The notes: generated by a model not told the origin, from the sequence alone. DNA of 64,000 nt from an uncultured Gammaproteobacteria bacterium (GCA_963846305.1 CAWJVK010000002.1:22690-86689); one strand, 5' to 3'; shown: positions 7,516 to 29,429, counted from the stretch's first letter. Numbers and translations: made by a program.

Positions 7516-8229
7516 ATGTGCGGTGCGCGTGCGCTCGCCGGATCGGCAGGGGCAGTGGTCGAGGTTATTCATCGTCGTCGCGCGCACGGTGGCCTGTTGC
7601 TGATGCTCGCCGCGGTCGGTGCGGTAGGCTGCGGTCACGCCGGCGCTGATTCGGCAGCGTCCGTAGGCGCGAGCAACCCCAAGCCAAGGAACGCCCCCGG
7701 GCCCAGTTCAATTCTCCGTAACTGGGACGCCGACAAGGACGGCACGATCAGTGCGACCGAGGCAGCTGCAATGAACGAGGCATTGGCTGCAAAGCCCGAT
7801 CGCCCGTTGGCGGCGCTCGACAGCGACGGCGATGGCAAACTGGGTGCGCAGGAGATTGCGGCGCTCAATGTCCGCCTCGCGGAGTACGCGGTAAAGAAAT
7901 CCGCTGCGCCGAAGAAGGCTGGTAATCGCGCGCCAAAGACCCCGGCCATCGATTGCGCCGCGGGCACTGGCACTGCGACGGTCACCTGGCAGCGACCGTC
8001 GGAGAACGTGGACGATACGCCGCTAAAGGACCTCGCGGGCTTCGTGATCCGTTACGGAACGAGTCCGCAATCACTGCCGTGCCGTGCTGCCGTCAAGGAT
8101 GCGGCTGCGACGAAGTACGTGGTCGAGCGCCTTGGCGTCGGGACTTGGTATTTCTCGGTAGTCGCCGTCAATCGCGACGGTGTCGAAAGCCCGGCCAGCG
8201 ACCTCGCCTCCAAGACCATCGATAAATAG
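7516..8229 (+). CDS. secreted (lipobox-like) protein with two EF-hand-like Ca-binding loops and a C-terminal FN3 domain
   Basis: ORF 7360..8229. ATG at 7516, or GTG at 7555 giving VVEVIHRRRAHGGLLLMLAAVGAVGC. Loops DADKDGTISATE and DSDGDGKLGAQE. FN3-like tail ATVTWQRP...GTWYFSVVAV. The stop TAG lies inside a REP. Confidence 0.65.
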   Translation: MCGARALAGSAGAVVEVIHRRRAHGGLLLMLAAVGAVGCGHAGADSAASVGASNPKPRNAPGPSSILRNWDADKDGTISATEAAAMNEALAAKPDRPLAALDSDGDGKLGAQEIAALNVRLAEYAVKKSAAPKKAGNRAPKTPAIDCAAGTGTATVTWQRPSENVDDTPLKDLAGFVIRYGTSPQSLPCRAAVKDAAATKYVVERLGVGTWYFSVVAVNRDGVESPASDLASKTIDK

Positions 8230-8274
8230 GTGCCTGGCACCGAATTATAAATAGGTGCCTGGCACCTATTTATT
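8222..8274. repeat. REP locus A: doublet of the GGTGCCWGGCACC palindrome
   Basis: ATAAATAGGTGCCTGGCACCGAATT followed by TATAAATAGGTGCCTGGCACCTATTTATT. Sits between convergent stops at 8229 and 8282. Confidence 0.9.
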
Positions 8275-8281
8275 GGCGCTG

Positions 8282-8956
8282 TCACGGGATCGTCTTCGAG
8301 GCCATCGCGGACGGTTCGCTCTCGACGCCGGTGTTGGTGTAGGAGGTGACGTTGAAATACCACGTGCCGCGCGTCAGTCCGCCTACCGTCGACTGCGTGA
8401 CATTTGGACGGCTCACCTGGATGAGCCTGTCCAACGAGTTCCTGTTGGTCCCGTAACGGACCTTGTAGCCGGCAAGGTTGGTGAGCGCGCTACCGTCGGC
8501 GTTACGTGTCGGCGCAACCCAGCGGACCGTCGCCGACCCAGTACTGCTTGCGGCGGCCCGCACATCGATCCTGAACGAGCGGAGATAGGTGGAGGCCTTG
8601 CCGTCGGAGGCTGCGATCCTGATGTTCTTGTAGGTGCCGATGTTCGCTGCGGTCGGCCTGCCGTACAGGCGGCCGGTCCTGTTGTCGAATCTCGCCCACG
8701 ACGGCTTGTTCGAGATGGCGAATGAAATTTTCTGGCCGTCCGCATCAGACGCCTTGGGACGGAATGAGTAAGCCTTGCCGACGACGACGGTCGCTGGAGG
8801 CGTACCCGTGATCGACGGTCTGCGGTTGGCGGTTGTCGCCGAACTGCCAAGGTTCACCGGGTTGCCAATATCTGCGGCGTCGCTTGCGGTGAACACGAGC
8901 AACAGGGTCGCCATCACGACGAATGGTCGAATCCTTGAGGGCTGGGGTATGTGCAT
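8282..8956 (-). CDS. secreted protein with an Ig-like (putative-Ig/cadherin-like) domain and a C-terminal FN3 domain
   Basis: 224-aa ORF with a signal-like N-terminus. ITGTPPATVVVGKAYSFRPKASDADGQKISFAISNKPSWARFDNRTGRLYGRP is typical of 'putative Ig' repeats. The FN3 tail ATVRWVAPT...GTWYFNVTSY is paralogous to the tail of 7516..8229. Confidence 0.7.
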   Translation of the reverse strand: MHIPQPSRIRPFVVMATLLLVFTASDAADIGNPVNLGSSATTANRRPSITGTPPATVVVGKAYSFRPKASDADGQKISFAISNKPSWARFDNRTGRLYGRPTAANIGTYKNIRIAASDGKASTYLRSFRIDVRAAASSTGSATVRWVAPTRNADGSALTNLAGYKVRYGTNRNSLDRLIQVSRPNVTQSTVGGLTRGTWYFNVTSYTNTGVESEPSAMASKTIP

Positions 8957-9432
8957 TTTTCAGTCCTGTCGAACTGGCAGCCCCGCTATCCATCGCACGT
9001 GAGTGCGCTTGGACCGGAGGCTTTGCGTCCCCGCATTTCGGCGGGTATGCAGTCTCGGAGACGAGCCAGAAAATGAAACGGCGGCCAGGTCCAGCCGCGG
9101 GTCACAGGCAACTGGCGAGCGCTTGCGCTCGGTTCAGTGCGGTGGCCGGGACCGGACCCAGGGTGCCTCGGGGGCCACTACCATGGGCGGGGGCGGATTA
9201 TGGGAAATGACGCGTCGCAACACAATATGTAGTGTGCAGAAATATTCGAATCTGGCGCGAGGAGGCGCCTTGTGCGTGGCGAGCGGCCCAGGGGGCGGCC
9301 CAGGGAGCGGCCCGGCCCGAGTGTGGCGGCGTTCCCGGTCCTTTTGGCGTTATTTGCCTTTATGTTCAGCAAGTTATGGCGCGGCGAGGACCACCCCGGA
9401 AAACCGGGATGTCCCCGCCCGCCCGCGGATCG

Positions 9433-9451
9433 AAAAAGGGGAATGTTCCCC
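9433..9451 (-). terminator. intrinsic terminator after PEP-CTERM gene 9457..10170
   Basis: The minus strand reads GGGGAACATTCCCC followed by TTTTT, 6 nt after the stop codon. Confidence 0.45.
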
Positions 9452-9456
9452 CGGGA

Positions 9457-10170
9457 TCAGGCCCTGGTCCGACGGCGCGCAAAACCCAGCCCGGCGAGGC
9501 CGAGCCCGAGCAGCGCCAGCGAGGCCGGTTCCGGCACCTCGGTCCTGTCGAAGGCTAGGTTGTCGAATTCGAACGCGTACTGGCTGGACGTCGCAACGAT
9601 GCGGTTGAAGGCCAGGTCGGACAGGATGTTGACGTACAGCGTGCCGTTCACGCCCTGGTCTCCGTTCGGGCTGCCGACCACGCTGCTGCCGGTGAGCGAG
9701 CCGACCAGCGTTGCGTCGTTGTAGAACGACAGCGTGTTGTAGTTGTCAACGGAGCCCCAGAGCAGGCCGAAGTACTGGTGGCCGGCGCCCGGCAGCAGGA
9801 TTTCGACAGACGCATTCGAGAACGCGCCGGTGGAACCGGTCGTTGCGTAGTGGGTCGTGTCCACGCCGTTCGCCTGGTTGGGGCTGCCAAAGCCTGTGCC
9901 GTTGCCGCCCGAGAGGAACGGCGCAGCGTACTGGCCGCTGACCGCGCCGGTCACGGTCTGGCCGTTGCCGTAGAAATTGACGTTGATTCCGCTCTGCGGC
10001 GATACGCCGCCGGTCGAGCCCAGGCTGAGCCAGTCGAGGTTGTCCTGCACCGAGCCAGCGGATGCACCGCCAACCGAGCCGCTGACAGTAAGCGTGGCGT
10101 GTGCGGGGAAGCTTGCCGCCAGCGTCGCCAGCACAGCGGTGGCCAAGGCCAGTCGAGTCTTGATGGTCAT
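9457..10170 (-). CDS. PEP-CTERM sorting-domain secreted protein
   Basis: 237 aa. Signal peptide MTIKTRLALATAVLATLAASFPAHA. C-terminus VPEPASLALLGLGLAGLGFARRRTRA. Confidence 0.9.
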   Translation of the reverse strand: MTIKTRLALATAVLATLAASFPAHATLTVSGSVGGASAGSVQDNLDWLSLGSTGGVSPQSGINVNFYGNGQTVTGAVSGQYAAPFLSGGNGTGFGSPNQANGVDTTHYATTGSTGAFSNASVEILLPGAGHQYFGLLWGSVDNYNTLSFYNDATLVGSLTGSSVVGSPNGDQGVNGTLYVNILSDLAFNRIVATSSQYAFEFDNLAFDRTEVPEPASLALLGLGLAGLGFARRRTRA

Positions 10171-10221
10171 GGTTTACCTTAATCTTTCGCAGCAATAGCG
10201 CGAGCTTGCGCACGGTAGTTA

Positions 10222-10238
10222 ATGCAGTTTGCGTGCCA
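10222..10238 (-). promoter_or_regulatory. sigma-54 (-24/-12) promoter of PEP-CTERM gene 9457..10170
   Basis: The minus strand reads TGGCACGCAAACTGCAT with canonical GG/GC spacing. About 50 nt upstream of the ATG. Same TGGCACG-N4-CTGCA form as at 5965..5980. Confidence 0.6.
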
Positions 10239-10244
10239 GCTGCG

Positions 10245-10257
10245 TAAGTGCTTGATT
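10245..10257 (-). promoter_or_regulatory. IHF-consensus site just upstream of the sigma-54 promoter
   Basis: The minus strand reads AATCAAGCACTTA, which fits WATCAANNNNTTR at every fixed position. Confidence 0.35.
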
Positions 10258-10312
10258 AGGTACCGTGCGCCGGAAACCCGCGCCGTCGATGGGCCGTGCC
10301 GCCGCCCGCCGA

Positions 10313-10330
10313 TGTAAGGGCGCGCGACAG
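10313..10330. promoter_or_regulatory. putative enhancer (UAS) motif TGTAAG-N6-CGACAG
   Basis: TGTAAGGGCGCGCGACAG preceded by GCCGA. Counterpart of 6066..6083. Centre lies about 85 bp upstream of the -24 element. Confidence 0.4.
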
Positions 10331-10361
10331 TCGACTGGTTCACACTTTCTAAGAAGCCCGG

Positions 10362-10414
10362 TAAATCGGTGCCTGGCACCGAATTAATAAATAGGTGCCT
10401 GGCACCTATTTATT
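10362..10414. repeat. REP locus B: doublet (variant-arm unit + canonical unit)
   Basis: TAAATCGGTGCCTGGCACCGAATTA followed by AATAAATAGGTGCCTGGCACCTATTTATT. The canonical unit contains the TAA stop of the regulator gene (10410-10412). Confidence 0.9.
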
Positions 10415-11669
10415 TGAATTCTTCGGGTTCGACGCCGTGGCGCGACAGTAGCTTGTAGAAGTCCGTGCGGTTGCGCTTGGCGAGCCGTGCTGCCTGGCTG
10501 ACGTTGCCCTGCGTGACCTGCAGCAGCTGCACCAGGTAGCTACGCGTGAACTCGTCACGCGCTTCGTCGAAGCTCGGCAGCTGTGTCAACTGGCCCTGTG
10601 CCTCCTGCACCTGGTCGGCGGTAATCACCGCGCCTGCGCCGGTCGCGGCAGCCTGGCGCACGACCATGCGCAACTGCCGCACATTGCCCGGCCAGCGCGC
10701 GGAGGCCAGCAGTTCCATCGCCTCCGGCGAGCAGCTGCGCTTCGCCTGCGATGCTTCGGCGGCCACGTCGTCCAGGCACTGCTGGACCAGCAGCGGGATG
10801 TCCTCGCGCCGCTTGCTGAGCGGCGGCAGCTCGATGTGCACCGCACCGAGCTGGTCGATGAGATCCCGTGAATCCCGATCGTCGCCGGCCAGGTCGTCGG
10901 GCCCGCGGTCACTGCTGGCAACGACGCGCGCCTGCCGGCGGTCGAGCAGTCGCGCGAGGCATGGCCGCAGCGCCGTCGGCAGTTCGTCAACGTCGATCAG
11001 GAACAGCGTGCCTGCGCCTGCACTGGAAACCGCCGCGGTGATCTCTGCCTCGCCGGTTGCAGGGTCCAGCTGCCCGCAGTCGAGCGACACGAACGCCGCT
11101 TCGTTGCGGGCACTCGCCCGGTGGATGGCCTTGGCGAGCAGTTCCTTGCCGGTGCCCGGCTCGCCGGTGACCAGCACCGCTGCGTCGGTGCCCGCGACCA
11201 TGTGCGCCTTCGCGAGGCGCTCTTCCATCAGCGGGCTGCGGGTCGCGAATTCGGCGCGCCAGTCATCGCCACCGCTGTCGGAAAAGCCCGAGGTCTTCAG
11301 CGCACGCCGGACCTCTTCGAGCAGCTGGTCCTTGTCGACCGGCTTGGTGAGAAATGCAAACGCACCCGACTGAGTGGCCTTCACCGCGTCCGGGATCGTG
11401 CCGTGCGCGGTCAGCATGATGACGTTCAGGCTCGGCCAGCGACGCTGCAGCTCGCGCAGCAGTGCGATGCCGTCCATCTCGGCCATGCGCAGGTCGGTCA
11501 CGACGAGGTCGGGCCGGAAGCGCGACACGGCGGCCAGCGCTTTCGCCGGACCGTCCACGGGCTCGACCACGTAGTTCTGCGAGCGCAGCCGGATGGTGAG
11601 CAGGCGCAGCAGTCCCGGGTCGTCGTCGACGACGAGGATGTGCGGCGCGCGGCGGGCAGGGCGGGACAT
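10410..11669 (-). CDS. GlrR/QseF-like NtrC-family response regulator with a degenerate AAA+ core (no GAFTGA)
   Basis: ORF 10410..12152 trimmed to ATG 11669 (MSRPARRAPHILVVDDDPGLLRLL...). Receiver domain, Walker A GEPGTGKE, and a Fis-type HTH tail GNVSQAARLAKRNRTDFYKLLSRHGVEPEEFK that is very close to my recollection of E. coli GlrR. The ELFGH..GAFTGA segment is absent. Confidence 0.8.
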   Translation of the reverse strand: MSRPARRAPHILVVDDDPGLLRLLTIRLRSQNYVVEPVDGPAKALAAVSRFRPDLVVTDLRMAEMDGIALLRELQRRWPSLNVIMLTAHGTIPDAVKATQSGAFAFLTKPVDKDQLLEEVRRALKTSGFSDSGGDDWRAEFATRSPLMEERLAKAHMVAGTDAAVLVTGEPGTGKELLAKAIHRASARNEAAFVSLDCGQLDPATGEAEITAAVSSAGAGTLFLIDVDELPTALRPCLARLLDRRQARVVASSDRGPDDLAGDDRDSRDLIDQLGAVHIELPPLSKRREDIPLLVQQCLDDVAAEASQAKRSCSPEAMELLASARWPGNVRQLRMVVRQAAATGAGAVITADQVQEAQGQLTQLPSFDEARDEFTRSYLVQLLQVTQGNVSQAARLAKRNRTDFYKLLSRHGVEPEEFK

Positions 11670-11855
11670 GGATGGTGGGGCGAGAAGAAATGGGGCGATC
11701 GGGGTGGAAATTGTGAATGAAGCCGGGGTGGCAATGTGGAGAATGCGTTTCGCGTGTCGATCCCAGCATCGATCGACGCCGTATCGCAATGTCGCGTTGA
11801 TCCACGGAGGTGTATGATAATGCCAACCTATACACATCGTTCCGGAGCCGATCCC

Positions 11856-12047
11856 ATGCGCACCAACATCGTCATCGACGACCGATTGATCGCCGAGGCC
11901 ATGCGGCTTTCGGGGGCCGCTACCAAGAGGCAGGTCGTCGAGGACAGCCTGCGGCTGATGGTCAAGCTGAAGCGCCAGGAGCAGGTGCGGGAGTCGCGCG
12001 GCAAGCTGCGTTGGACGGGTGACCTGGACGCGATGAGGCGCGACTGA
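11856..12047 (+). CDS. vapB: type II antitoxin, VapB-like
   Basis: 63 aa, MRTNIVIDDRLIAEAMRLSGAATKRQVVEDSLRLMV... GGAG lies 7 nt upstream of the ATG. Immediately followed by a PIN toxin gene. Confidence 0.8.
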   Translation: MRTNIVIDDRLIAEAMRLSGAATKRQVVEDSLRLMVKLKRQEQVRESRGKLRWTGDLDAMRRD

Positions 12048-12059
12048 CGCGGCGCGACC

Positions 12060-12455: not shown

Positions 12456-12468
12456 CAGCGGGCGGGAT

Positions 12469-14705: not shown

Positions 14706-15667
14706 GCGCCACCCCGCACCCGTATTCCACGTTGACGCCGGACGTCGTGATCGACGCCGTCGAGGCGATCGGCCACCGCTGCGACGGCCGCGTGCTGGCG
14801 TTGAACAGCTACGAGAATCGCGTGTACCAGGTCGGGCGCGAGGATGACGCGCCGGTGGTCGTCAAGTTCTACCGGCCCGGGCGCTGGACCACGCCCGCGA
14901 TCCTCGAGGAGCACGCGTTCGCGCTCGAGCTCGCGGCGGCCGAGGTGCCGGTGATCGCGCCGCAGGTCCGCGAGGGTGAGTCGCTGCACGAGTCGCACGG
15001 GTTCCGCTATGCCGTCTATCCGCGGCAGGGCGGGCACTGGCCGGAACTCGGGACGCGCGACGAGCGGCAGTGGATGGGCCGCTTCCTCGCGCGCATCCAC
15101 GCCATCGGTCGTACGCGGCAGTTCCGTCACCGCGCGGAACTCGACTGGCGGGTGCTGGGCGGTGAGACCATGGGTTACCTGCTCGAGGAAGGCTGGATCC
15201 CTGCGCACATCGAGCTTGCCTACGAGACGGTGGCGCGCGACGCGCTGATGCTCGTCGAGCAGCGCTTCGACGAGGCCTCGCCCTACCACACGCTGCGGCT
15301 GCACGGGGACTGCCACCCCGGCAACGTGCTGTGGACCGACGCCGGGCCGCACTTCGTCGACCTCGACGACTGCATGACCGGGCCGGCGGTGCAGGACCTG
15401 TGGATGCTGCTGTCGGGCCGCCCCGAGGAGATCCAGTCCCAGCTCGACGACCTGCTGGAGGGTTACGCGCAATTCGCCGACTTCGACTGTCACGAGACGC
15501 GACTGATCGAGCCGCTGCGGACGCTCCGGATCATGCACTACGCGGGCTGGCTCGCCCGGCGCTGGGAAGACCCGGCGTTTCCGCGGGCCTTCCCGTGGTT
15601 CGAGGAGCCCAAGTACTGGGAGCAGCACGTCCTGGACCTGCGCGAGCAGATCTCCGCGATGGAATAA
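14687..15667 (+). CDS. srkA: stress-response Ser/Thr kinase SrkA (YihE/RdoA family)
   Basis: LTPDVVIDAVEAIGHRCDGRVLALNSYENRVYQVGREDDAPVVVKFYRPGRWT and LHGDCHPGNVLW...FVDLDD. No ATG at an appropriate position, so GTG 14687 was chosen (about 326 aa, matching the family length). Confidence 0.8.
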   Translation: MPSQASRATPHPYSTLTPDVVIDAVEAIGHRCDGRVLALNSYENRVYQVGREDDAPVVVKFYRPGRWTTPAILEEHAFALELAAAEVPVIAPQVREGESLHESHGFRYAVYPRQGGHWPELGTRDERQWMGRFLARIHAIGRTRQFRHRAELDWRVLGGETMGYLLEEGWIPAHIELAYETVARDALMLVEQRFDEASPYHTLRLHGDCHPGNVLWTDAGPHFVDLDDCMTGPAVQDLWMLLSGRPEEIQSQLDDLLEGYAQFADFDCHETRLIEPLRTLRIMHYAGWLARRWEDPAFPRAFPWFEEPKYWEQHVLDLREQISAME

Positions 15668-15717
15668 ATAGGTGCCAGGCACCGATTTAATTAATCGGTG
15701 CCTGGCACCTATTTATT
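15663..15717. repeat. REP locus C: inverted doublet (REPIN-like 55-bp composite palindrome)
   Basis: AATAAATAGGTGCCAGGCACCGATTTAA | TTAATCGGTGCCTGGCACCTATTTATT. The halves are reverse complements apart from a 1-nt indel. Contains the TAA stop of srkA. Confidence 0.9.
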
Positions 15718-18541: not shown

Positions 18542-19180
18542 ATGAAGCATCGAATTCGCGCGGGACACTTCGCCATGGGCCTTGCGTTGGCGCTGGCGGC
18601 GGCACTTGCGGCGGGCTGCGGCGGCAAGTCGGACGGCGATGCGGTCAGCAAGGCGGCAAATGGCGCCGACAAGGCACCTGCCACGCCGGCCCAGGAGCAG
18701 GTCAAGGCTGCGCAGCCGGAGGCGGAAAAACTGGCCAATGCGGTGGCGACCGGCAAGAGCTCGGCGCCGGTGGACCTCAAGTACGACATCCTGGCGAAGC
18801 CGGCCGTCGGTGAGCCTTTCGAGGTCGAGTTGACGCTGCTGCCGCGCCTTGCGGTGGATTCGCTGGACGTGGAGATCTCCGCGGTCGAGGGCCTGACACT
18901 CGTCGGCAGCGATCCGATCAGGTTCGAGAACGTGCAGGCCGGCGAGCGTTACACCGCGAAGGTCCTGGCCCAGTCGCAGGTGGCGGGCATGTACTACATC
19001 GGGGTCTCGGCGAAGATGACGACCAGTACGCAGAGCGAAGTCCGCGGCTTCTCGGTGCCGATCGTCGTCGGCGTCATTGCGGCTGCCGAGAAGCCCGAGC
19101 CTGCGCGCGATGCCAGAGGCGAGGCGGTGGAGTCGATGCCGGCGGCGTCGCCAGGCGACCAGGCCCAGCAAAATAAATAG
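18542..19180 (+). CDS. hypothetical lipoprotein
   Basis: MKHRIRAGHFAMGLALALAAALAAGCGG. No recognisable domain. The stop TAG lies inside a REP. Confidence 0.6.
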   Translation: MKHRIRAGHFAMGLALALAAALAAGCGGKSDGDAVSKAANGADKAPATPAQEQVKAAQPEAEKLANAVATGKSSAPVDLKYDILAKPAVGEPFEVELTLLPRLAVDSLDVEISAVEGLTLVGSDPIRFENVQAGERYTAKVLAQSQVAGMYYIGVSAKMTTSTQSEVRGFSVPIVVGVIAAAEKPEPARDARGEAVESMPAASPGDQAQQNK

Positions 19181-19214
19181 GTGCCAATAAATAGGTGCCA
19201 GGCACCTATTTATT
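19172..19214. repeat. REP locus D: half unit + full unit
   Basis: AATAAATAGGTGCC immediately repeated as AATAAATAGGTGCCAGGCACCTATTTATT. Confidence 0.9.
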
Positions 19215-19326
19215 GCCGGCCATAGGGCATCCGCCGATTCGGGGGTAGGAGACATTCTCCATTTGCAGGGAGAATGTCCGCGGTTTCCCCGGTATACTCC
19301 GCGCCCTTTTCCCCGGGCGCCCCAAC

Positions 19327-21159
19327 GTGACCGTCGACCCCACCAGACACCTTCGTAACATCGCGATCATCGCGCACGTCGACCACGGCAAGACCACCCT
19401 GGTTGACCAGCTCCTCAAGCAGTCCGGGACGTTCGCGGCCCGCACGGTCGTGCCGGATCGCGTCATGGATTCCAACGCGCTCGAGCGCGAACGCGGCATC
19501 ACGATCCTCGCGAAGAACACCGCGATCCGCTGGAACGACTACCGGATCAACATCGTCGATACGCCGGGGCACGCCGATTTCGGCGGTGAGGTCGAGCGCG
19601 TGCTCTCGATGGTCGATTCGGTGCTGCTGCTGGTCGACGCGGTGGACGGCCCGATGCCGCAGACGCGCTTCGTCACGCAGAAGGCTTTTGCGCACGGCCT
19701 GCGCCCGATCGTGGTCATCAACAAGATCGACCGCCACGAGGCGCGCCCGAACTGGGTGCTGGACCAGACATTCGACCTGTTCGATCGCCTCGGCGCGACC
19801 GAGGAGCAGCTCGACTTCCCGGTGATCTACACCTCGGCGATCCAGGGCTTCGCGACCCACGATCCGGGCCATCGCGGCGGCGACATGACCACGCTGTTCG
19901 AGACCATCGTGAAGCATTGCCCGCCGCCGGACGTTGACCTCGACGGGCCGTTGCAGCTGCAGGTCTCGCAGCTCGACTACTCCAGCTACGTCGGCGCGAT
20001 CGGCATCGGTCGCATCAAGCGCGGCACGCTGAAGAAGGGCATGCAGGTCACGGTGGTTGACCGGCAGGGGCGCGCCCGAAACGAGCGCGTGATGCAGGTG
20101 CTCGGCTTTCACGGCCTCGACCGCATCGAAGTCGATTCGGTGGATGCGGGAGACATCGTCGCCTTCGCGGGCATCGAGACCCCGGCCATTTCCGACACCT
20201 TGTGCGATCCGTCGAAGCCCGAGGCGCTGCCGCCGCTGGTCGTGGACGAGCCGACCATCGGCATGACGTTCGAGGTCAACACCTCGCCATTCGCGGGCAA
20301 GGAGGGCAAGTACCTCACCAGCCGCCAGATCCGCGAGCGACTGCTGCGCGAGGCGCTGACCAACGTGGCGCTGAGGGTCGAGGAGACCGAGGATCCCGAC
20401 AAGTTCCAGGTTTATGGTCGCGGTGAACTGCACCTGGGCGTGCTGCTGGAGAACATGCGCCGCGAGGGTTACGAGATTGCGGTTTCGCGGCCGCGCGTGG
20501 TGATCAAGGAAATCGACGGCGTGCAGAACGAGCCGTACGAGATCCTGGCGGTGGACATCGAGGATTCGAGCCAGGGCGGCGTGATGACGGCGCTCGGCAG
20601 CCGCGGCGGACAGCTGCAGGCCATGCACCCCGACGGCAAGGGCCGCGTGCGTCTCGACTACGTGATCCCGGCACGCGGCCTGATCGGCTTCCAGACCGAG
20701 TTCCGTACGCTGACCTCGGGACTGGGCCTGCTGTTCCACGTGTTCGACCACTACGCGCCCGTGCTCGACAAGCCGATCGCGGCGCGCCAGAACGGCGTGA
20801 TGATCTCCAACGGCCAGGGCATGGTGCTCGGGTATTCGCTGTTCAACCTGCAGGAGCGCGGACGGCTGATGGTCGGCCACGGCGACGAGGTCTACGAGGG
20901 CCAGCTCGTCGGCATCCACAGCCGCGACAGCGACCTGGTCGTGAATCCGCTGAAGGGCAAGAAGCTGACCAACGTGCGGGCCTCGGGCCGCGACGAGAAC
21001 ATCGTGCTCACGCCGCCGATCCGTTACACGCTCGAGCAGGCGATGGAGTTCATCGAGGACGACGAACTGGTGGAGATCACGCCGGCGTCGATTCGCCTGC
21101 GCAAGCGCGCGCTGAAGGAGCACGACCGCAAGCGTGCCGGACGCGCCGACGACGCATAA
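19327..21159 (+). CDS. typA: translational GTPase TypA/BipA
   Basis: GTG start. [39 protein letters not shown]. 610 aa. Confidence 0.95.
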
Positions 21160-21210
21160 ATAGGTGCCAGGCACCTATTTATTTAATTCGGTGCCAGGCA
21201 CCTGTTTTTT
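21156..21210. repeat. REP locus E: canonical unit + variant unit with T-run
   Basis: ATAAATAGGTGCCAGGCACCTATTTATTT followed by AATTCGGTGCCAGGCACCTGTTTTTT. Contains the typA TAA stop and encodes the last 11 codons of the RAYT gene on the other strand. Confidence 0.9.
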
Positions 21211-21861
21211 GGGGCGGCCCCTGGGGCGTTTCGGACACGCGAAGTATCCGGGGTTCGACGACGTCTCCTCGATCCATCGCGGGTCCCCGAACGGGCGCTG
21301 GCGATTCACGCAGTCACGCAGTCCCTCAAGTTCGTCGGGCGACTGAGGCTCGTTGACCAGTTCAATCCAGTGGCCAGGCAGGTCCACTGGCGGGTCGGCA
21401 AGGCGGTTGGCGGGGTCGTCCACCAGGCGCAATGCAAGGCTGCCCCACGGCCAGTGCTCAGCCTTTTGCGCGAGCCCTGCGCGCAACGCATTGCGTTCCA
21501 CGTAACGCATGACCGTCAGCAGGTGCGCGTCGTTCTTGATCGCGAAAGCGCGGAATCTTCCCTGCCACACGCTGCCCGAGGTACCGTAGATGAGGTGATG
21601 GCGATGCGTGTGCGTGGTCGTCAGCCAGTGCATCCAGCGGCTGATGTCATGCGGGCCGTCGGGCGACACCACCAGGTGGAAGTGGTTGGGCATCAGGCAG
21701 TAGGCCAGCACGCTGAGTGGCAGGCGTTCCTGGGCCCGGTCGATCAAGGCCAGGAATGACTTGAAGTCGGCGGACCGGCGAAAGACCACGGCCTTGTTGT
21801 TACCGCGGTTGATCAGGTGGTAACAGCCGCCGGCAACCAGCATTCGGGGACGTCTCGGCAT
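21175..21861 (-). CDS. REP-associated tyrosine transposase (RAYT, IS200/IS605-like Y1 HUH enzyme)
   Basis: 228 aa. YHLINRGNN, HUH motif AYCLMPNHFHLVV, WQGRFRAF, and the catalytic-Tyr helix MRYVERNALRAGLAQKAEHWPWGS. Confidence 0.85.
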   Translation of the reverse strand: MPRRPRMLVAGGCYHLINRGNNKAVVFRRSADFKSFLALIDRAQERLPLSVLAYCLMPNHFHLVVSPDGPHDISRWMHWLTTTHTHRHHLIYGTSGSVWQGRFRAFAIKNDAHLLTVMRYVERNALRAGLAQKAEHWPWGSLALRLVDDPANRLADPPVDLPGHWIELVNEPQSPDELEGLRDCVNRQRPFGDPRWIEETSSNPGYFACPKRPRGRPKKQVPGTELNK

Positions 21862-21919: not shown

Positions 21920-21948
21920 AATAAATAGGTGCCTGGCACCTATTTATT
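21920..21948. repeat. REP locus F: single canonical unit
   Basis: AATAAATAGGTGCCTGGCACCTATTTATT. Contains the TAA stop of purU (21944-21946). Confidence 0.9.
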
Positions 21949-22804
21949 CGAAGACGACGGTGCGATTGCCGTAGGCCAGGACGCGGTGCTGAAGGTGTGC
22001 ATGCACGGCGCGCGCGAGCACGATTTTCTCCAGGTCGCGGCCCTTGCGGACCATGTCCTCCACGGAGTCCTTGTGACTCACGGCAACGACGTCCTGGGCG
22101 ATGATCGGGCCCGCATCCAGTTCCGCGGTGACGTAGTGACTGGTCGCGCCGATCACTTTCACCCCGCGCGCATGGGCCGCGTGATATGGCTGCCCGCCCG
22201 CGAAGGCCGGAAGGAACGAGTGATGGATGTTGATGATGCGGTCGGGCAGCGTGTCGATGAAGCGCGGCGAGACGATCTGCATGTAGCGCGCGAGCACCAC
22301 GAGGTCGATCCCTTCCTCATGCAGTAACGCGAGCTGCCGGTCCTCGGCCGCGTCCTTCGTGTCCCGCGTAACCGGCACGTGTTCGAAGCGGATTCCATGG
22401 CGCGCCGCGACCGGCGCCAGGTCCAGGTGATTGCTGACGATCAGCGGGATGTCCGCGGACCATTCACCGGATTCCCAGCGCGACAGCAGGTCGTGCAGGC
22501 AATGCCCGTAGCGCGAGACGAACAGGGCGATGCGCTGGCGGCGATCCGCGCGCTCCAGCCGCCAGGTCATCGAGCAGGGCGCCGCGACCTCGTCGGCGAA
22601 GACGGTTTCGAAGCGCTCGCCGGCAGTCGGGTCGTCGGCCGGTGGTGTCCACTCGACGCGCATGAAGAACACCTGGCGCTGGGTGTCGACGTGCTGGTCC
22701 AGGTCGACGATGTTGCCACGGACCCTGCGGATGAGCGTGGTCACCGACGCCACGAGCCCTTCGCGGTCCGGGCAATGGATCAGCAGGATCAGGTTGGTTT
22801 TCAT
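21944..22804 (-). CDS. purU: formyltetrahydrofolate deformylase
   Basis: ACT-like N-terminus MKTNLILLIHCPDREGLVA. IINIHHSFLPAFAGGQPYHAAHARGVKVIGATSHYVTAELDAGPII. Confidence 0.95.
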   Translation of the reverse strand: MKTNLILLIHCPDREGLVASVTTLIRRVRGNIVDLDQHVDTQRQVFFMRVEWTPPADDPTAGERFETVFADEVAAPCSMTWRLERADRRQRIALFVSRYGHCLHDLLSRWESGEWSADIPLIVSNHLDLAPVAARHGIRFEHVPVTRDTKDAAEDRQLALLHEEGIDLVVLARYMQIVSPRFIDTLPDRIINIHHSFLPAFAGGQPYHAAHARGVKVIGATSHYVTAELDAGPIIAQDVVAVSHKDSVEDMVRKGRDLEKIVLARAVHAHLQHRVLAYGNRTVVFE

Positions 22805-22907
22805 CGCATCGGTCGCCCGGCGCAGCGGAAGCGGGACATTGTCTGTTTTTCCACCGGTTTTCGCACCAGTCGCTGGCTCGGGTCACCGGGCCGGGGGACC
22901 CGGGATC

Positions 22908-22936
22908 GAAAATAGGTGCCTGGCACCTATTATTTC
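22908..22936. repeat. REP locus G: degenerate single unit
   Basis: GAAAATAGGTGCCTGGCACCTATTATTTC. Its right end overlaps the first two bases of the TGA stop (22935-22937, minus strand) of the GGDEF-EAL gene. Confidence 0.8.
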
Positions 22937-25900
22937 AGGCGGTCAGGCGGACGGTCGACGAGTCCTCGGCCAGCAGCGTGGCCAGCGACTCGACCGGCAG
23001 CGGTGGCCCGATGTAGTTGCCTTGCGCGTACTGGATGCCGATGTCCGCGAGCCGCGCGAGCACGCGGGCGCTGTCCACGCGCTCGGCGATGGTGCTGATG
23101 CCCATCGTATCGCCGATCTGCACGATTGCCTCGACCATGCTGCGGTCGATGCGGTCGTGGTTCACGTTGTGCATGAACTGGCCGTCGATCTTCAGGTAAT
23201 CCACCGGCAGGCTCTTCAGGAACATGAACGACGAGAGGCCGCTGCCGAAGTCGTCGAGCGCGAAGCTGCAGCCGCGCCGGCGCAACTCGTCGATGAAGTG
23301 GGTCGCGGCGGCCAGGCTGGTCATGGCGCCGGCCTCGGTGAGCTCAAAGCACAGCGCCCCCGGGCTCAGGTCGGCCGCGGCGATCTCGTTGATCACGTAG
23401 TCCAGGAACTGCTCGTCGTTCAGCGTAGTGCCCGAGATGTTGATGCTGAGCGTGAACGGCGTCCGGTTCGCCGCGTCGTTGCGGCGGTGCGCAAGCCGGC
23501 TGCAGGCCTGTCGCACGACCCAGCGGTCGACCACTGGCATGAGGTTGAAGCGCTCGGCAGCCGGTATGAACTCGGCGGGCTGCACCAGCGTTCCGTGCTC
23601 GTCGCGCATGCGCAGCAGCAGTTCGAACCTGCGCTGCTTGTCCACGCCGGTGCGGATCGGCACGATGGGCTGGCACATCAGCACCATCAGGTCCTCGTCG
23701 CAGGCGCGGTTGATGCGCGACACCCACTGCATTTCGCGGTGCCGTTCCGGGGCCCGTCCCTGCTCGTAGGTCTGCACGCGGTTGCGGCCGGAGTCCTTGG
23801 CGGAGTAGCAGGCCACGTCGGCCGCGCTCATCACCGAGCCTGCGGTCTCCGAGTCGCCGGTGATCTCCGAGATGCCGATCGAGACGCCGATCTTCAGCAC
23901 GCGCTCCTGCCAGATGAAGCGGTAGTCGCGAATTGCCTGGCGCAGCCCCTCGGCGATGCGGTGGGCGGTGTCGAGCGTGCAGTCGTGCAGCAGCACGCCG
24001 AATTCGTCGCCGCCGAGTCGTGCCAGCGTGTCGCTGGTGCGGATACGTGTCTGGACCACGCTGGTGACCTGCTTCAGCAGCCGGTCGCCGGCCTCGTGAC
24101 CGCAGGTGTCATTGACCACCTTGAACTGGTCGAGGTCCAGGTACAGCAGCACGTGGCGCAGGCGGTCGGAGTCACGCGCTCCCTGCAGTGCGTCGCCCAG
24201 TCGCACCTCGAATTCACGGCGATTGATCAGCCCGGTCAGCGCGTCGTGTGTTGCCTGGTAGGTGAGGGCGCGCTGCAGGCGCCGCTCCTGGCTCACGTCG
24301 TGGAACACCATCACGGCGCCGATCAGCCGGCCGGTCCGGTCGCGAATCGGTGCCGCGGAATCCTGCACCGAGATCTCCTGGCCGCGGCGGTTGACCAGCA
24401 GCGCCGGCTCGGGCAGTTCCACGACACGGTCTTCGCGCAGGCAGCGCAGGATCGGGCTGTCGACCGGAACGCGGGTGACCTCGTTCAGCACCTGGAAGAC
24501 CTGCGAGACCGGGCGGCCCGCGGCTTCTCCAGCGGTCCAGCCGGTGAGCTGCTCGGCCACCGGGTTCAGGTACTCGACCAGCCCGCCGGCGTCGGCGGTC
24601 AGGACGGCGTCGCCAATCGACTGCAGCGTGACCTGCGCCTTCTCCTTTTCCTCGGCGAGCTGTATCTCGGCGAGCTTGCGGGTGCTGATGTCGGCCAGCG
24701 TGCCTTCGTAGCCGGCAATTTCGCCGTCCAGCCCGCGCAGGACCCGCGCATTCTCCAGCACGGTGATCACGCGGCCGTCGCGGCAACGCAGCTGGTACTC
24801 GGCGCTCTGCACCCGCCCGTCGCGCCGCAGGGTATCCACCACTCGCTCCCGGTCGGCGGGGTCCACGTACAGCACCGACGTTGAAGGCAGCGTGAGCAGG
24901 TCCTCGTCGCGCTCGTAGCCCAGCATCGCCACCAGCGCAGGGTTGACCGACTCCAGCTGGCCGGACACGTCGGCCCGGTACACGCCCTCGATCACGTTCT
25001 CGAACAGGCCGCGATAGCGCGCCTCGCTGCTGCGCAGGGCCTCCTCGGACTGCCTGCGCTCGATCGCAATGCCGGCGAGCGCGGTGAGGCGGCCCATCAG
25101 TTCGAAGTCTCGCTTCAGCGGGCTGCGCGGCGTGCGGAAATACAGCGCGACCGTGCCGATCATGGGGCCGTCCGACGAGCGGATCGGGGTGGACCAGCAC
25201 GCGCGCAGGCCGGCGGACAGCGCCGGCTCGCGCAGGTGCTCCCACAGCGCGTCGCGCGCGATGTCGGCCACCACGACCTGCCGTTGCAGGAACGTGGCGG
25301 CGGCGCAGGAACCGTTCCTCGGCCCGACCTCGACACGCTTCAGCGTGGCGAGGAACGGGGCCGCAATGCGTTGCCCGGCGACCACCCGAAGCACGTTCGG
25401 CACGGCTTCGTACAGGCTGACGGTGCACAGGGCATCGGGCGTGACGTGCTCCGCGGTCTCCGCGATCGCCTCGAGCGTCGCCGGCAGGCTCGCGTTGGCG
25501 GTGATGCGCTCGAGCACCAGCCGTTCGCCGGCGGCAAGGAATTCGCTGCGCTTGCGCTCGGTGATGTCGGTGATGCTGCCGCGGACCAGGCGTCGCTCGG
25601 AGGACGGCAGGCGGACCAGCCTGACCTCGCAGGGAATGACGTGCCCGTGCGCGTCGCGATGCAGCCACTCGAAGCAGGGCGCCTCGCCCTCGAGTGCGCG
25701 ATCGAGGTAGCCGCGCGACACGCCGGCGGAAGGGGTGCCGTCGGCCTGGGTCTCCGGGCTGATATGCGCCGGTCCAACCGCAAGCAGTTCCTCGCGCGTC
25801 ATCTTGAAGAAGCGCACTGCGTTCTCGTTGCACTCGACGAAGCGTCCGAGGTCGATGTCGAAGACCACCAGCACTTCCGGGGCGTTCTCGACCAGCGTGC

Positions 25901-26426: not shown

Positions 26427-26594
26427 CGATGCCACACCAAGCCTGGCGCCCCGCAAACGGGGCAGGCGGTACCGGATACTAGGCGCCGCGTGCCGACCAC
26501 CGATGTGACCCGGGTCGCAATCGGGCCGGCCGCTGCGGACTGCGGGTGCTGTGCCATCCGGTACAATTCCCGCGGTCGCTGCAGCAGGCTCCCA

Positions 26595-27440
26595 ATGTCC
26601 CCAGACCCCACAGAGCGCACAGGCCACGCCGACCACGTTCCAGGCAGGCTGTCGCTGATCGGGCGTGACGACCCGCCACCCTTCGTGGTGCTCCACGAGC
26701 ACGGCGCGGCGCCGGCGCTGGTGGTCTGCGACCACGCGAGCCGCGCCTTCCCCGGGGCGATGCAGCGGCTCGGGTTGCCGCCGCTGCAGACCTGGGAGCA
26801 CGTCGCCTGGGACATCGGCGCGGGCGAGATTGCGCGAGGCATATCCAACGCGCTCGACGCGCCGGCCGTGCTGGCCGGCTACTCGCGCCTCATCGTGGAC
26901 TGCAATCGACCTCCGTACCACGAGGAGTCGATCCGCGCCGAGAGCGATGGATGGGTCGTCCCGGGCAACCAGGCGCTCGACGAACTGGAGCAGCGCACAC
27001 GGCTCGCCTGCTTCTTCGATCCCTACCACGAGGCGATCGCCGCGATGCTCGGCGGCTTCCGCGCACGCGGCGTGGCGCCGTTGGTGGTGTCGGTGCACAC
27101 GTTCACGCCGCTGATGGCCGGCAAGCTGCGGCCCTGGCACGTTGGCGTCCTCTGGGACCGCGACGAGATTTCCGCGCGCTACATGATCGAGGGGCTCGGT
27201 GCGATCGCCGGTGTCCTGGTCGGAGACAACGAGCCCTACAGCGGCCGGCACCCGGCCGACTACACCGTCGATCATCACGCCGAGGGCGGTGGGCTGCGGC
27301 ACGTCTGCGTCGAGATCAGGCAGGACCAGATCGAATCGCCCGCGGGCGTGGAGCGCTGGGTGCGCATCATGGCGCGCCTGCTGCGCGGCCTGATGTCGGA
27401 TATCGCCGGCGCGGGGCCGGGCCCGCAGGGCGGGGCGTGA
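26595..27440 (+). CDS. N-formylglutamate amidohydrolase-family protein
   Basis: ORF trimmed to ATG 26595. VVCDHASRAFP, AWDIGAGEIA, SRLIVDCNRP, VSVHTFTP, CVEIRQD. Confidence 0.75.
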   Translation: MSPDPTERTGHADHVPGRLSLIGRDDPPPFVVLHEHGAAPALVVCDHASRAFPGAMQRLGLPPLQTWEHVAWDIGAGEIARGISNALDAPAVLAGYSRLIVDCNRPPYHEESIRAESDGWVVPGNQALDELEQRTRLACFFDPYHEAIAAMLGGFRARGVAPLVVSVHTFTPLMAGKLRPWHVGVLWDRDEISARYMIEGLGAIAGVLVGDNEPYSGRHPADYTVDHHAEGGGLRHVCVEIRQDQIESPAGVERWVRIMARLLRGLMSDIAGAGPGPQGGA

Positions 27441-27442
27441 GC

Positions 27443-28411
27443 ATGGACCGGCGGATATCGGTTGCGCCGATGATGGACTACACGGACCGCCACTGCCGCT
27501 ACCTGCATCGGCTGTTGAGCCCCGGTGCGCTGCTCTACACCGAGATGGTGACCGCGCAGGCGCTGGCGCACGGTCACGTCGAGCGATTGCTCGGTTACGA
27601 CCGGGCCGAGTCGCCGGTTGCGCTGCAGGTCGGCGGGTCCGATCCGCCGCTGCTCGCGCTGGCCGCCAGGTTCGGTGAGCAGTACGGTTACCGCGAAATC
27701 AACCTGAACGTGGGCTGTCCCAGCGACCGCGTGCAGGAGGGCAATTTCGGCGCGTGCCTGATGGCGGAGCCACAGCTCGTTTCCGACTGCCTGGTCGCGA
27801 TGCGCGAGGCGGTCAGCGTGCCGGTGACGGTGAAGTGCCGCATCGGCATCGACGAGCTGGACGACTACGGGTTCTTCGACCACTTCGTGCAACTGGTGCG
27901 CCGCTCCGGCGTGACGGTGTTCGTGGTCCACGCCCGCAAGGCGATCCTGCAGGGACTGACGCCGAAGGAGAATCGGGAGATCCCGCCGCTGCGCTACGAG
28001 ATGGTCGCGCGCCTGAAGCGCGAGAACCCGGACCTCACGGTGATCCTCAACGGCGGGCTGAAGACGATCGCGCAGGTGCGCGAATGGTGGAGCCAGTGCG
28101 ACGGCGTGATGCTCGGGCGCCAGGTGTACCAGGAGCCGTACCTGCTTGCGGAACTGCACCGCGAGTTCGTCGATCGCGACTGGACGCCGCCCTCGCGCGA
28201 CGCTGTCGTGGAACAGTACGCGGAATACGTCGAGCGCATGCTGGGCGAGGGCCACAAGCTCGGACTGATGCTGAGGCCGTTGCACGGCCTGTATGCGGGG
28301 TTCCCGGGAGCCCGTTCGTGGCGGCGATACCTGGCCGAGCAGGGCAATGTCCCGGGCGCCGGCGCGGGTGTCCTCCGGGAGTCGCTGCGCGTGTTCCAGC
28401 GCGCGGCATGA
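27443..28411 (+). CDS. dusA: tRNA-dihydrouridine(20/20a) synthase
   Basis: MDRRISVAPMMDYTDRHCRYLHRLLS..., INLNVGCPSDRVQEGNFGACLM, VHARKAILQGLTPKENREIPPL. Confidence 0.95.
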   Translation: MDRRISVAPMMDYTDRHCRYLHRLLSPGALLYTEMVTAQALAHGHVERLLGYDRAESPVALQVGGSDPPLLALAARFGEQYGYREINLNVGCPSDRVQEGNFGACLMAEPQLVSDCLVAMREAVSVPVTVKCRIGIDELDDYGFFDHFVQLVRRSGVTVFVVHARKAILQGLTPKENREIPPLRYEMVARLKRENPDLTVILNGGLKTIAQVREWWSQCDGVMLGRQVYQEPYLLAELHREFVDRDWTPPSRDAVVEQYAEYVERMLGEGHKLGLMLRPLHGLYAGFPGARSWRRYLAEQGNVPGAGAGVLRESLRVFQRAA

Positions 28412-28495
28412 GGACGGGCGCGCGTGCCCCTGTATAATCTCCCGACGGCCGCCCCTGGCCGATCGAGTCATGCAGGGAATCGTCTCCTGGCGAAG

Positions 28496-29398
28496 ATGAG
28501 CAACGAGACCGAGGTTGCCGTCCTGTTCGCGGACGTCGTGGGCAGCACGCGCCTCTACGAGGTGCTCGGCGACCTCAAGGCGCGCGACATGGTCGTCGCG
28601 TGCGTGGACATCATGCGCGCCGCGACAGAGCGCAACCGCGGCTCGGTGATCAAGACCATTGGCGACGAGATCCTGGCCATCTTCCCCACGGCGGACGACG
28701 CGGTGAACGCGGCGGGCGAAATGCAGCAGGACATCGGTGCCCGGCCGGAGTTGTCGGTGCAGGGGCAGCACGTCGCGATGCGCATCGGTTGCCACTTCGG
28801 GCCGGTGGTGCTCGAGAACCGAGATATCTTCGGCGCTTCGGTGCACACGGCGAACAGGATGACCAGCCAGGCCAAGGCCGGGCAGATCATCCTCACTGCG
28901 GAAACGGTCGGGCGCCTGTCGATGGAGTGGCGTGTGCTGACGCGGCAGATCGACGTTGCGCCGGTGCGCGGCCGCGCGGACGAGATGGAACTCTTCGAAG
29001 TGCTCTGGCAGCAGGAGGATGCGACCAGCATGCTGCCGTCGATCGAGATCGACGCGCGCACCGGGCACCGGCCGCAGCGTGTCCGGCTGCGCTACCGTGG
29101 CCGCGACATGCTGCTGGGCGACCGCCGCGAGAGCCTGACGATGGGACGCGCCGAGGAAAACGACGTCGTCGCGCAAGGGCCGCTGATCTCACGCATTCAC
29201 GCGCGCATCGAGATCGCGCGCAACAAGGTGCTGCTGGTGGACCAGAGCACGAACGGTACATTCGTCGTCACCCAGGACGGCAAGGAGTCGTTCATCCGCC
29301 GCGACTCGCACCCGCTGGCGGGGCAGGGCACCATCGGCCTCGGCAAGCTGCCCGACCCGGCGGCGCCCGACGCCATCAAGTACCAGGTCGAGGACTAG
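28496..29398 (+). CDS. class III adenylate/guanylate cyclase fused to a C-terminal FHA domain
   Basis: ATG 28496. VAVLFADVVGSTRL, IKTIGDEILAIF and ANRMTSQAK are cyclase catalytic motifs. C-terminal LTMGRAEENDVV...SRIHARIE...LVDQSTNGTFV is FHA. Confidence 0.8.
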   Translation: MSNETEVAVLFADVVGSTRLYEVLGDLKARDMVVACVDIMRAATERNRGSVIKTIGDEILAIFPTADDAVNAAGEMQQDIGARPELSVQGQHVAMRIGCHFGPVVLENRDIFGASVHTANRMTSQAKAGQIILTAETVGRLSMEWRVLTRQIDVAPVRGRADEMELFEVLWQQEDATSMLPSIEIDARTGHRPQRVRLRYRGRDMLLGDRRESLTMGRAEENDVVAQGPLISRIHARIEIARNKVLLVDQSTNGTFVVTQDGKESFIRRDSHPLAGQGTIGLGKLPDPAAPDAIKYQVED

Positions 29399-29401
29399 CC
29401 A

Positions 29402-29429
29402 AATAAATAGGTGCCAGGCACCTATTTAT
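29402..29429. repeat. REP locus H: single canonical unit
   Basis: AATAAATAGGTGCCAGGCACCTATTTAT, between the convergent stops of the cyclase-FHA gene (29398) and pckG (29429). Confidence 0.9.

Follow-up and report, generated by a model that had tools for sequence, protein, structure and literature searches.

REP palindromes at the stop codons of genes around a RAYT gene in an uncultured high-GC gammaproteobacterium

We analysed a 64-kb stretch of DNA (64,000 nucleotides, hereafter the window; GCA_963846305.1 CAWJVK010000002.1:22690-86689; GC content 67.5%) from an uncultured gammaproteobacterium, in which a short palindromic repeat lies on or beside stop codons. The repeat, a repetitive extragenic palindrome (REP), is the 29-nt perfect palindrome AATAAATAGGTGCCWGGCACCTATTTATT. 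The window contains 13 copies of its 13-nt core, GGTGCCWGGCACC, where shuffled sequences predict 0.22, and all of these copies lie between 2896 and 29422. Twelve of the 13 are intergenic and form eight loci: four doublets, three singles and one half copy joined to a full copy. The loci accompany a gene for a REP-associated tyrosine transposase (RAYT), and close homologues of the flanking proteins are named as Steroidobacteraceae metagenome-assembled genomes (MAGs). The features are as follows; no strand is assigned to the REP loci.

8221..8274, REP doublet between the convergent fn3-domain genes 7360..8229(+) and 8282..8956(-)
10360..10414, REP doublet of a variant and a canonical copy, supplying TAA 10410-10412 of a GlrR-like gene
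15663..15717, inverted REP doublet resembling a REPIN (REP doublet forming a hairpin), a 55-nt near-perfect palindrome with a fold of -43.9 kcal/mol
19170..19214, half REP 19170-19185 (AAATAAATAGGTGCC) and full REP 19186-19214, behind gene 18542..19180(+)
21155..21210, REP doublet between typA(+) and the RAYT gene(-), supplying both stops
21175..21861, minus strand, RAYT gene with REPs on both sides (21155-21210 and 21920-21948)
21920..21948, single REP separating the start of the RAYT gene from the end of purU
22907..22935, single decayed REP directly behind the GGDEF-EAL stop TGA 22935-22937, upstream of purU
29402..29430, single REP making up essentially the entire 30-nt spacer between a cyclase-FHA gene and pckG

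REP loci, arms and the RAYT gene

The eight loci touch 11 gene ends, and a REP lies within 15 nt of the stop at all 11. The stop positions proposed for these ends by a sequence-only reading of the window agree with the sequence read directly: seven stops lie inside a REP arm, two overlap a REP end and two lie 2-7 nt outside. Inside the arms, REP positions 3-5 supply the TAA of the GlrR-like sigma-54 activator gene 10410..11669(-), of srkA 14732..15667(+) (15665-15667, with the doublet 44 nt upstream of galE), of typA (21157-21159) and of purU 21944..22804(-) (21944-21946, from the single copy 21920..21948). REP positions 7-9 supply the TAG of gene 7360/7516..8229(+) (ATC GAT AAA TAG, 8227-8229) and of the RAYT gene (21175-21177). 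The AAT AAA TAG end of gene 18542..19180(+), its TAG also at REP positions 7-9, lies in the truncated half copy 19170-19185, directly before the full copy. At the GGDEF-EAL gene and at pckG (29429-29431), the TGA shares 1-2 nt with the end of a REP. The TAG of the cyclase-FHA gene (29396-29398) is 2-3 nt outside its REP, and the TGA of gene 8282..8956(-) is 7 nt outside the doublet 8221..8274.

This placement is not random. Positions within 7 nt of a stop make up 4.3% of the REP-stripped intergenic positions in the window, and the probability that eight of eight loci fall there is ~1e-11. The earlier statement that every REP copy is on or near a stop holds for all eight intergenic loci and their 11 gene ends, with one exception: a core-only copy (GAGGTGCCTGGCACCTGTTT, 2896-2908) lies at no stop inside the coding sequence 2741..5083(+), and it is kept in a relative (L045 3611; L numbers designate sequences from other genomes). 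The association of REPs with stops is real and non-random, and it is explicable without a new mechanism.

The stop codons are part of the repeat. Across the surveyed genomes, REP positions 4-26 (AAATAGGTGCCWGGCACCTATTT; AAATAGG...CCTATTT) are 91-100% conserved, and positions 1-3 are purine-rich and subfamily-dependent. Beyond positions 1-29, most alignment columns reach at most ~40% for any base, with an isolated peak of 51%, and no conserved motif appears in these flanks. The TAG of the arm is part of an ATAG that is present in both arms and 91-100% conserved. A T at position 3 creates a TAA and is the hallmark of the subfamily in the window genome and its closest relative. Together, TAG and TAA close two of three frames per strand, as the sequence-only reading had also noticed, and they do so within three codons. 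T at position 3 shows no enrichment toward genes: it occurs in 33/90 gene-facing arms and in 39/124 arms that face no gene (p=0.47). Because it is equally common where no gene is faced, the stops belong to the element and were not copied from its targets.

A single REP folds as RNA into a hairpin of -14.7 kcal/mol (z=-5.3) with a full stem of 13 bp, and the inverted doublet reaches -43.9 kcal/mol. The GC part of the stem has 5 bp (-6.8 kcal/mol) and a 3-nt loop and is followed on both strands by UAUUUAUU, in which the U-tract is interrupted. Several REP copies pass a lax terminator scan, and 21190-21202 is followed by TGTTTTTT. Doublets across the survey are inverted in 20/30 cases and direct in 10/30. 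The loop base W shows no significant preference for one orientation with respect to the neighbouring gene (19:11).

The RAYT protein matches Pfam Y1_Tnp (PF01797, E=3e-13), and its best NCBIfam match, NF047646 (REP-associated tyrosine transposase), scores 73.8 bits, below the cut-off of 80. The translation contains an HUH motif (HFH) and a YVERNALRAG motif. The window repeats and this Y1/HUH gene are a REP/REPIN-RAYT system, and the REP copies are presumably mobilised by the sole RAYT gene, 21175-21861. The gene occupies the same position between purU and typA in L052, L109, L110 and L111. Its frame in the window crosses an entire variant REP, in which TAG is mutated to CAG, and stops in the next one, so that 11 residues are REP-encoded. 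The tails in four genomes (...RPKKQVPGTELNK, ...RPRKNRCLAPN, ...RPRKNRCPWHRIK and ...RPPKKIGA, each followed by the stop) enter the REPs in different ways. Relative to the RAYT gene, the eight loci are all confined to the range from -13 kb to +8 kb, and the remaining 34 kb of the window are free of them. This cluster is old because it is common to a ~90% identical relative.

The two genes around the first doublet belong to a group of paralogous fn3/He_PIG secreted proteins which end in ...KTI(D/E/P/K)(K) and have a REP on every stop (window 7360-8229 and 8282-8956; L041 ~2599-2796; L063 ~1464-1670). In the window the two are convergent, and the palindrome is prolonged by the gene ends.

Gene ends facing REPs in related genomes

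A scan of genome contigs with the 21-nt core gave at least 108 eight-kb blocks, of which ~75 came from related high-GC gammaproteobacterial MAGs. In these related blocks and the window we surveyed 111 REP clusters, 107 of them usable. Genes were called with a custom GC-frame caller that was validated on the window, a strict GC3 filter having been rejected for missing real genes. The caller still misses some genes, including the two fn3 genes, so that the survey counts are lower bounds.

At least 60/107 clusters have a stop inside the REP or within 8 nt. Among 137 gene 3' ends facing a REP cluster, the stop begins within an arm in 42 cases (the TAG in 23 and the TAA in 14); 20 stops overlap or abut the REP, 25 lie at 1-8 nt and 47 farther away, and three frames read through. 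The tabulation of REP-to-stop distances, extended in this way beyond the window to related MAG blocks, bears out the close association: 62/137 stops lie inside or abut a REP, and 87/137 do so or lie within 8 nt. The stop offsets spike sharply at -1, 0, 1, 3 and 7.

The REPs lie close to the preceding stop rather than to the following start. In co-directional spacers (n=34), the median gap is 0 nt to the stop versus 101 nt to the next start, and the stop is the nearer in 30/34 (p=6e-6). Convergent gene pairs with a REP (n=44) have a median of 10.5 nt of non-REP spacer left over. REPs occupy 45/92 convergent, 41/361 co-directional and 6/83 divergent spacers, the last with a median length of 247 nt. 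Codon usage differs as well: stops beside REPs are TAG in 59%, TGA in 21% and TAA in 19% of cases, whereas elsewhere they are TAG in 21%, TGA in 69% and TAA in 10%. Direct repeats between the two flanks are no longer than in displaced controls across the surveyed loci, except for 19 nt in L063 and a 10-mer at the second window locus that is compatible with chance.

The 21-nt hairpin AATAGGTGCCWGGCACCTATT is also found, with different outer arms (TCAATAGG...CCTATTGA), in identical form in distant phyla. The hosts are Pirellula/Planctomycetota MAGs of ~50% GC (L001, L021, L049, L060, L067, L073, L094, L098 and others), a gammaproteobacterial MAG of 51% GC (L046, L077, L086) and Bacillus (L061). 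Horizontal transfer or convergence are possible explanations. In the Pirellula MAGs the hairpin lies ~65 nt upstream of a Y1-transposase-like gene encoding ~385 aa. A RAYT of 205 aa is flanked by it in L086 and likewise has a tail that runs through the REP (...NRCQAPILGIK). The Y1 transposases beside these hairpins are 25-30% identical to the window RAYT. A crude filter for open reading frames (ORFs) of at least 100 codons, which is a weak test, revealed no clear association of the hairpin with stops in the Pirellula and other low-GC MAGs.

Ancestry of the stop positions and remodelling of the junctions

Comparison with homologues shows that the stop position of the conserved proteins is ancestral. 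PurU (...TVVFE) and a solved PurU (...TVVFD) can be aligned up to their final residues, and the REP-free L112 and L113 read TTC GAC TGA at this point. The Pck end, ...ALG, is shared with M. tuberculosis Pck and with ~70 metagenomic orthologues, all of which stop at exactly this residue. The TypA end differs by no more than one residue from that of E. coli BipA and coincides with that of the REP-free L113 (...VEE TAG). Other ends are less constant. The GlrR-like protein ends in EEFK in the REP-bearing clade and in EEFK plus S, M, T, P or D in more distant homologues; SrkA is ~10 residues shorter than E. coli YihE; and the product of 18542..19180 ends in ...QAQQNK in the window versus ...EPAK in three relatives. 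The native stop in REP-free relatives is TGA at purU and the GGDEF-EAL gene and mostly TGA at pckG.

The sequence-only reading had regarded some of the C-termini, such as that of GlrR, as being of natural length. This stands for typA, purU and pckG, which are ancestral to within one residue, and needs a small amendment for the GlrR-like gene, where one variable last residue was lost. It fails for the RAYT and 18542..19180 tails, which differ arbitrarily between genomes; arbitrary REP-encoded tails are tolerated where the C-terminus is dispensable, as in RAYT and in the L063 protein described below. The alignment with REP-free orthologues likewise supports an ancestral position of the stop in conserved proteins but not an ancestral identity, which is mostly TGA there.

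At orthologous sites that lack a REP, only about 2-15 nt of free DNA lie behind the stop. From the GGDEF-EAL TGA to the purU ATG there are 8 nt in the REP-free L113 and 52 nt in L112. The convergent pckG/cyclase-FHA spacer measures 2, 3, 7 or 12-18 nt in 16/57 metagenomic loci, and longer versions contain other palindromes or tandem repeats. In L196 (2760-2763), the convergent GlrR-like and zinc alcohol dehydrogenase genes overlap by 4 nt at a CTAG and share opposite-strand stops, which shows how compact 3' ends are in this lineage. The GlrR-like gene of the REP-free L195 ends in TTC AAA ATG TGA. The upstream activating sequence (UAS) motif TCGACTGTCG and a sigma-54 promoter region follow after ~4 nt, and the window has kept the two on the downstream side of the doublet 10360..10414. 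Its sigma-54 promoter-like TGGCAC-N5-TGCA at 10223-10238(-) lies directly downstream of the GlrR-like gene and upstream of a gene for a PEP-CTERM protein, 9457..10170(-). The stretches of ~100 nt from a REP to the next start in the window largely consist of another mobile palindrome. For example, a family-2 REPIN lies between the REP and purU in L109, and its remnant in the window is at 22833-22844.

Other repeats occupy the same stops. The purU, typA, GGDEF-EAL and GlrR-like stops of L111 and L194 are joined to a palindrome of the GGGGACATTCTCC type. The junctions there read TGA-GGGGACATTCTCC (GGDEF-EAL), GAA TAG plus 6 nt (purU), GAA TAG GAA TAG GGGAC (typA) and TTT AAA TAG GGGACATTCCCCTATTT (GlrR-like). 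A third family, TAGGGACTGTCCC, is present in L033 where a sister genome has a REP of the window type, and the protein tails are LRKVRR versus LRKRK. Because different palindrome families occupy the same stops, attachment to stops is not peculiar to the TAA/TAG arms of this REP. The second palindromic family, (G)TAGGGGACATTCTCC, has few copies in the window (19249-19280, 22833-22844 and possibly 9438-9452) and is abundant in the relatives L111, L114, L117, L119 and L194; a variant in L194 shares the main REP arms (AAATAGG-GGACATTCC-CCTATTT). The pckG/cyclase-FHA spacer is a hot spot for many repeat types. In other metagenomic relatives G-rich tandem repeats (GGAAGG..., GGGGTTAGGGG...) fill it in place of palindromes, with the GGAAGG type in L157, L162-L164, L170 and L171 and the GGGTTAGGGG type in L152, L160 and L169.

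The junctions between gene and REP change over short evolutionary distances. The ~90% identical relative is syntenic over 32 kb and has 7/8 REP loci in common with the window, and the junctions differ. Gene 7360..8229 ends in GAT AAA TAG in the window and in GAA AAA TAA, with the TAA of the REP, in this relative (L045). Gene 8282..8956 has its TGA 7 nt outside the REP in the window and a REP TAA at the same codon in L045. The two fn3 proteins of L045 have the same ends, KTIEK and KTIP. At purU, the REP-free TTC GAC TGA corresponds to TTC GAA TAA ATAGG in the window, TTC TGA TAA ATAGG in L052 and L109, and TTC GAA TAA TAGG in L110; the ~90% identical relative has TGA TAA for the GAA TAA of the window. 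The pckG TGA is fused to the REP in the window and lies 23 nt away, behind a duplicated arm, in the close relative L017. At the GGDEF-EAL gene the outgroup L110 has TGAcccggAAAATAGG, and the window, L052 and L109 have a direct fusion, a difference that would fit trimming of the junction. L097 has a CAG in place of an upstream TAG, and its frame continues for three codons to the REP TAG. Half copies and partial arm duplications are common, and copy number and arrangement (single, doublet or half) vary freely between close relatives.

For empty sites, gapped alignments bridged the REPs in BLAST searches with concatenated flanks, and we projected the left and right flanks separately instead. In at least two cases (L004 2986-3067 vs L037 5461-5489; L032 5984-6064 vs L084/L035), a REP doublet has split a resident REP precisely in its middle (GGTGCC^GGCACC), with the loop base replaced and half REPs left on both sides. 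These REPIN-like doublets carry their own terminal inverted repeats. Such an insertion would explain the half and full copies at 19170-19214 in the window, and this locus looks like its remnant. The corresponding locus of the relative (18542..19180) was considered as an empty site and rejected, as it contains other palindromic remnants and encodes a different protein tail.

The sole clean pair of a filled and an empty site is L063 3233-3501 versus L041 780-1040 (reverse strand). In L063, a REP and a half REP lie 18 nt inside the coding tail, between a 19-21-nt direct duplication of that tail. The original end VGEIS is replaced by EK, and the old tail persists behind the REP. A flanking duplication of this kind was not seen at other surveyed loci, and it is unusual for Y1 transposition. 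This pair speaks against the earlier proposal of a TAA/TAG-containing insertion target.

Possible origins of the pattern and known REP systems

The account that we favour, and consider somewhat probable, combines retention of copies, built-in stops and trimming of junctions. Free DNA behind stops amounts to a few nucleotides in this compact 67% GC lineage, and copies would persist at 3' ends, as REPs in general do; since the free space is so short, a surviving copy would have to touch the stop. The stops of the arms (TAG within ATAG and the subfamily TAA) close two of three frames entering from either strand. A copy that lands in the stop or in dispensable codons at the very end of a gene would therefore be free of cost, and so would later loss of the native stop. 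Small deletions, partial arm duplications and stop-codon turnover would then fuse the gene end with the arm. We infer the order of these events, and retention rather than targeting as their cause. The preference of REPs for 3' ends could in itself reflect an insertion bias or selection for a function of the hairpin.

Several points weigh against this account. Retention alone requires the loss of more than ~97% of insertions in divergent or promoter spacers, and such a strong requirement hints at a real 3'-end bias or at positive selection. In a hand tally that set aside partial arms and the second family, TAG made up ~42% of the native-looking stops just outside REPs versus a baseline of 21%, and this excess would fit a cleavage preference related to CT/TAG. 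The blocks were chosen for containing a REP and many loci are orthologous, so that the counts are not independent. The gene ends come from a custom caller that missed genes, the A-runs of long-read MAGs possibly contain homopolymer errors, and insertion sites are represented by one clean empty/filled pair.

A more direct explanation would be that the RAYT or a REP hairpin guide directs copies to a short stop-like sequence. If the system works as in E. coli TnpAREP, the head might pair through its AG with a CT cleavage site, which is present opposite TAG (CTA). The E. coli RAYT cuts at CT, guided by GTAG (PMC3479197). The sharp spike of offsets, the enrichment of TAG among stops just outside REPs and the hand tally in which 8/12 stops at offset -1 are a TAG directly before G-AAAATAGG all point in this direction, and doublets lying exactly at the centres of resident REPs argue that insertion is not random. 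However, no conserved flank exists outside the palindrome, TGA predominates among the native stops of REP-free relatives, and REPs are found next to TGA too. Arms that face genes have no excess of T at position 3, the single clean new insertion is located away from a stop, within a coding tail and between a 19-21-nt duplication, an unrelated hairpin family is found at the same stops, and the same hairpin shows no obvious attachment to stops in the ~50% GC Pirellula MAGs by the crude ORF test. We therefore regard targeted insertion as quite unlikely. The TAA/TAG-containing target suggested by the sequence-only reading is not supported, in view of the same observations on native TGA stops, flanks, position 3, the other palindromes and the insertion in a coding tail. 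Selection for function deserves more credit, though it still appears unlikely as the main cause. The hairpin might be kept at the stop as a bidirectional terminator, a 3'-end stabiliser or a translational attenuator (<15 nt from the stop), in a dispensable spacer and with the stop-bearing arms co-opted. The stable RNA hairpins (-14.7 kcal/mol for a single REP, z=-5.3, and -43.9 kcal/mol for an inverted doublet), the GC stem followed by UAUUUAUU on both strands with several copies passing the lax terminator scan, the far higher occupancy of convergent than of divergent spacers and the conservation of REP loci between ~90% identical genomes are consistent with this. E. coli REPs act as terminators and stabilisers, and those less than 16 nt from a stop lower translation (bioRxiv 10.64898/2026.03.23.713779; PMC12306157). 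A selected function could also provide the 3'-end bias that retention alone explains poorly. On the other side, many relatives have the same convergent pair with 2-15 nt and no hairpin, the GC stem has just 5 bp (-6.8 kcal/mol) with an interrupted U-tract, and copy number and arrangement shift freely between close relatives.

The pattern might also be produced by gene calling, since open frames in 67% GC DNA run to the first A/T-rich patch and the arms would end spurious or over-extended ORFs. Many long spurious ORFs do exist in such DNA and some end in REPs, for example 19210..21174(-). However, the genes at these 11 ends have Pfam domains or conserved orthologues, and C-termini align to the ends of solved homologues and ~70 orthologues. 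An artefact is ruled out for the conserved genes on the basis of domains and homologue C-termini, and overall its probability is negligible. A far-reaching and rather improbable extension is that the stop-rich arms are an adaptation of the REP lineage, or a consequence of RAYT targeting, that lets the element enter and take over stops where a genome offers hardly any free DNA at 3' ends. The REP would then be a portable cassette of a stop codon plus bidirectional hairpin, coupling translation termination to the formation of transcript 3' ends.

The pattern has close precedents. Di Nocera, De Gregorio and Rocco (2013; PMC3733652) found that REPs between convergent ORFs mostly lie <20 bp from both ORF ends, that those between co-directional ORFs lie near the upstream ORF end and at a variable distance from the downstream ORF, and that the TAG stop is often provided by the GTAG termini of the REP. 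The window REPs resemble these GTAG REPs in being short palindromes with a (G/A)TAG head that occur as singles and dimers, mostly between convergent or co-directional ORFs. They differ in having ATAG on both arms of a perfect palindrome, with A/T-rich arms in a 67% GC genome, and in the subfamily TAA, which adds a stop in another frame and closes two frames per strand. The placement rule and the donation of TAG were thus already described in 2013 for other REP families; particular to the present case are an arm that is A/T-rich and brings an additional TAA stop into a high-GC host, and the comparison showing a free 3' space of a few nucleotides. To our knowledge, the host, an uncultured Steroidobacteraceae-like gammaproteobacterium, was not covered by that survey. 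A literature search for REP-stop overlap found no usable statement specific to Stenotrophomonas.

Nunvar et al. (2010; PMC2817692) reported that REPs directly follow the rayt stop and that copies are enriched in the neighbourhood of rayt. As in known REP/REPIN-RAYT systems (PMC2817692; Bertels and Rainey 2011, PMC3116915), the window has a single REP-flanked RAYT gene with a REP behind or overlapping its stop, inverted doublets that give long hairpins, a RAYT inherited vertically at a fixed locus and copies enriched near it, as reported for Thauera. Unlike in those systems, the RAYT scores just below the NCBIfam cut-off, one third of the doublets are direct, and the C-terminal 5-11 residues of RAYT are REP-encoded and differ between genomes. 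E. coli TnpAREP needs a GTAG head for binding and cleavage (PMC3479197). The ATAG head matches GT(A/G)G at 3/4 positions, agreeing in the TAG part and having A instead of G as its first base, and by analogy the ATAG of the window arms is probably the counterpart of the GTAG head. The IS200/IS605 Y1 elements (IS608, ISDra2) and E. coli TnpAREP (PMC3479197) share with the present system an HUH/Y1 enzyme, recognition of a hairpin with a 5' tetranucleotide and, in general, the lack of a target-site duplication. Unlike at IS200/IS605 elements, no conserved tetra- or pentanucleotide target flanks the copies, the stops beside REPs being TAG, TGA and TAA, and one insertion (L063) has a 19-21-nt flanking duplication.

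In E. coli, according to Liang, Rudd and Deutscher (2015) as relayed in PMC12306157, many of the REPs are found 1-20 nt downstream of the closest stop, and at a distance of up to 15 nt they cause terminating ribosomes to stall and reduce translation. The present case differs in that many stops are inside the stem itself and is known from sequence alone. It shows how a selfish palindrome can live alongside a very compact high-GC genome by occupying the few neutral nucleotides at gene ends, where a REP can replace the stop codon and the last residue(s) without harm. Gene calling and annotation of such genomes should allow for stops and junk C-terminal tails that are REP-encoded, as in the RAYT gene here. 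Statistics of stop-codon usage are likewise skewed by the repeats, with TAG at 59% next to REPs versus 21% elsewhere.

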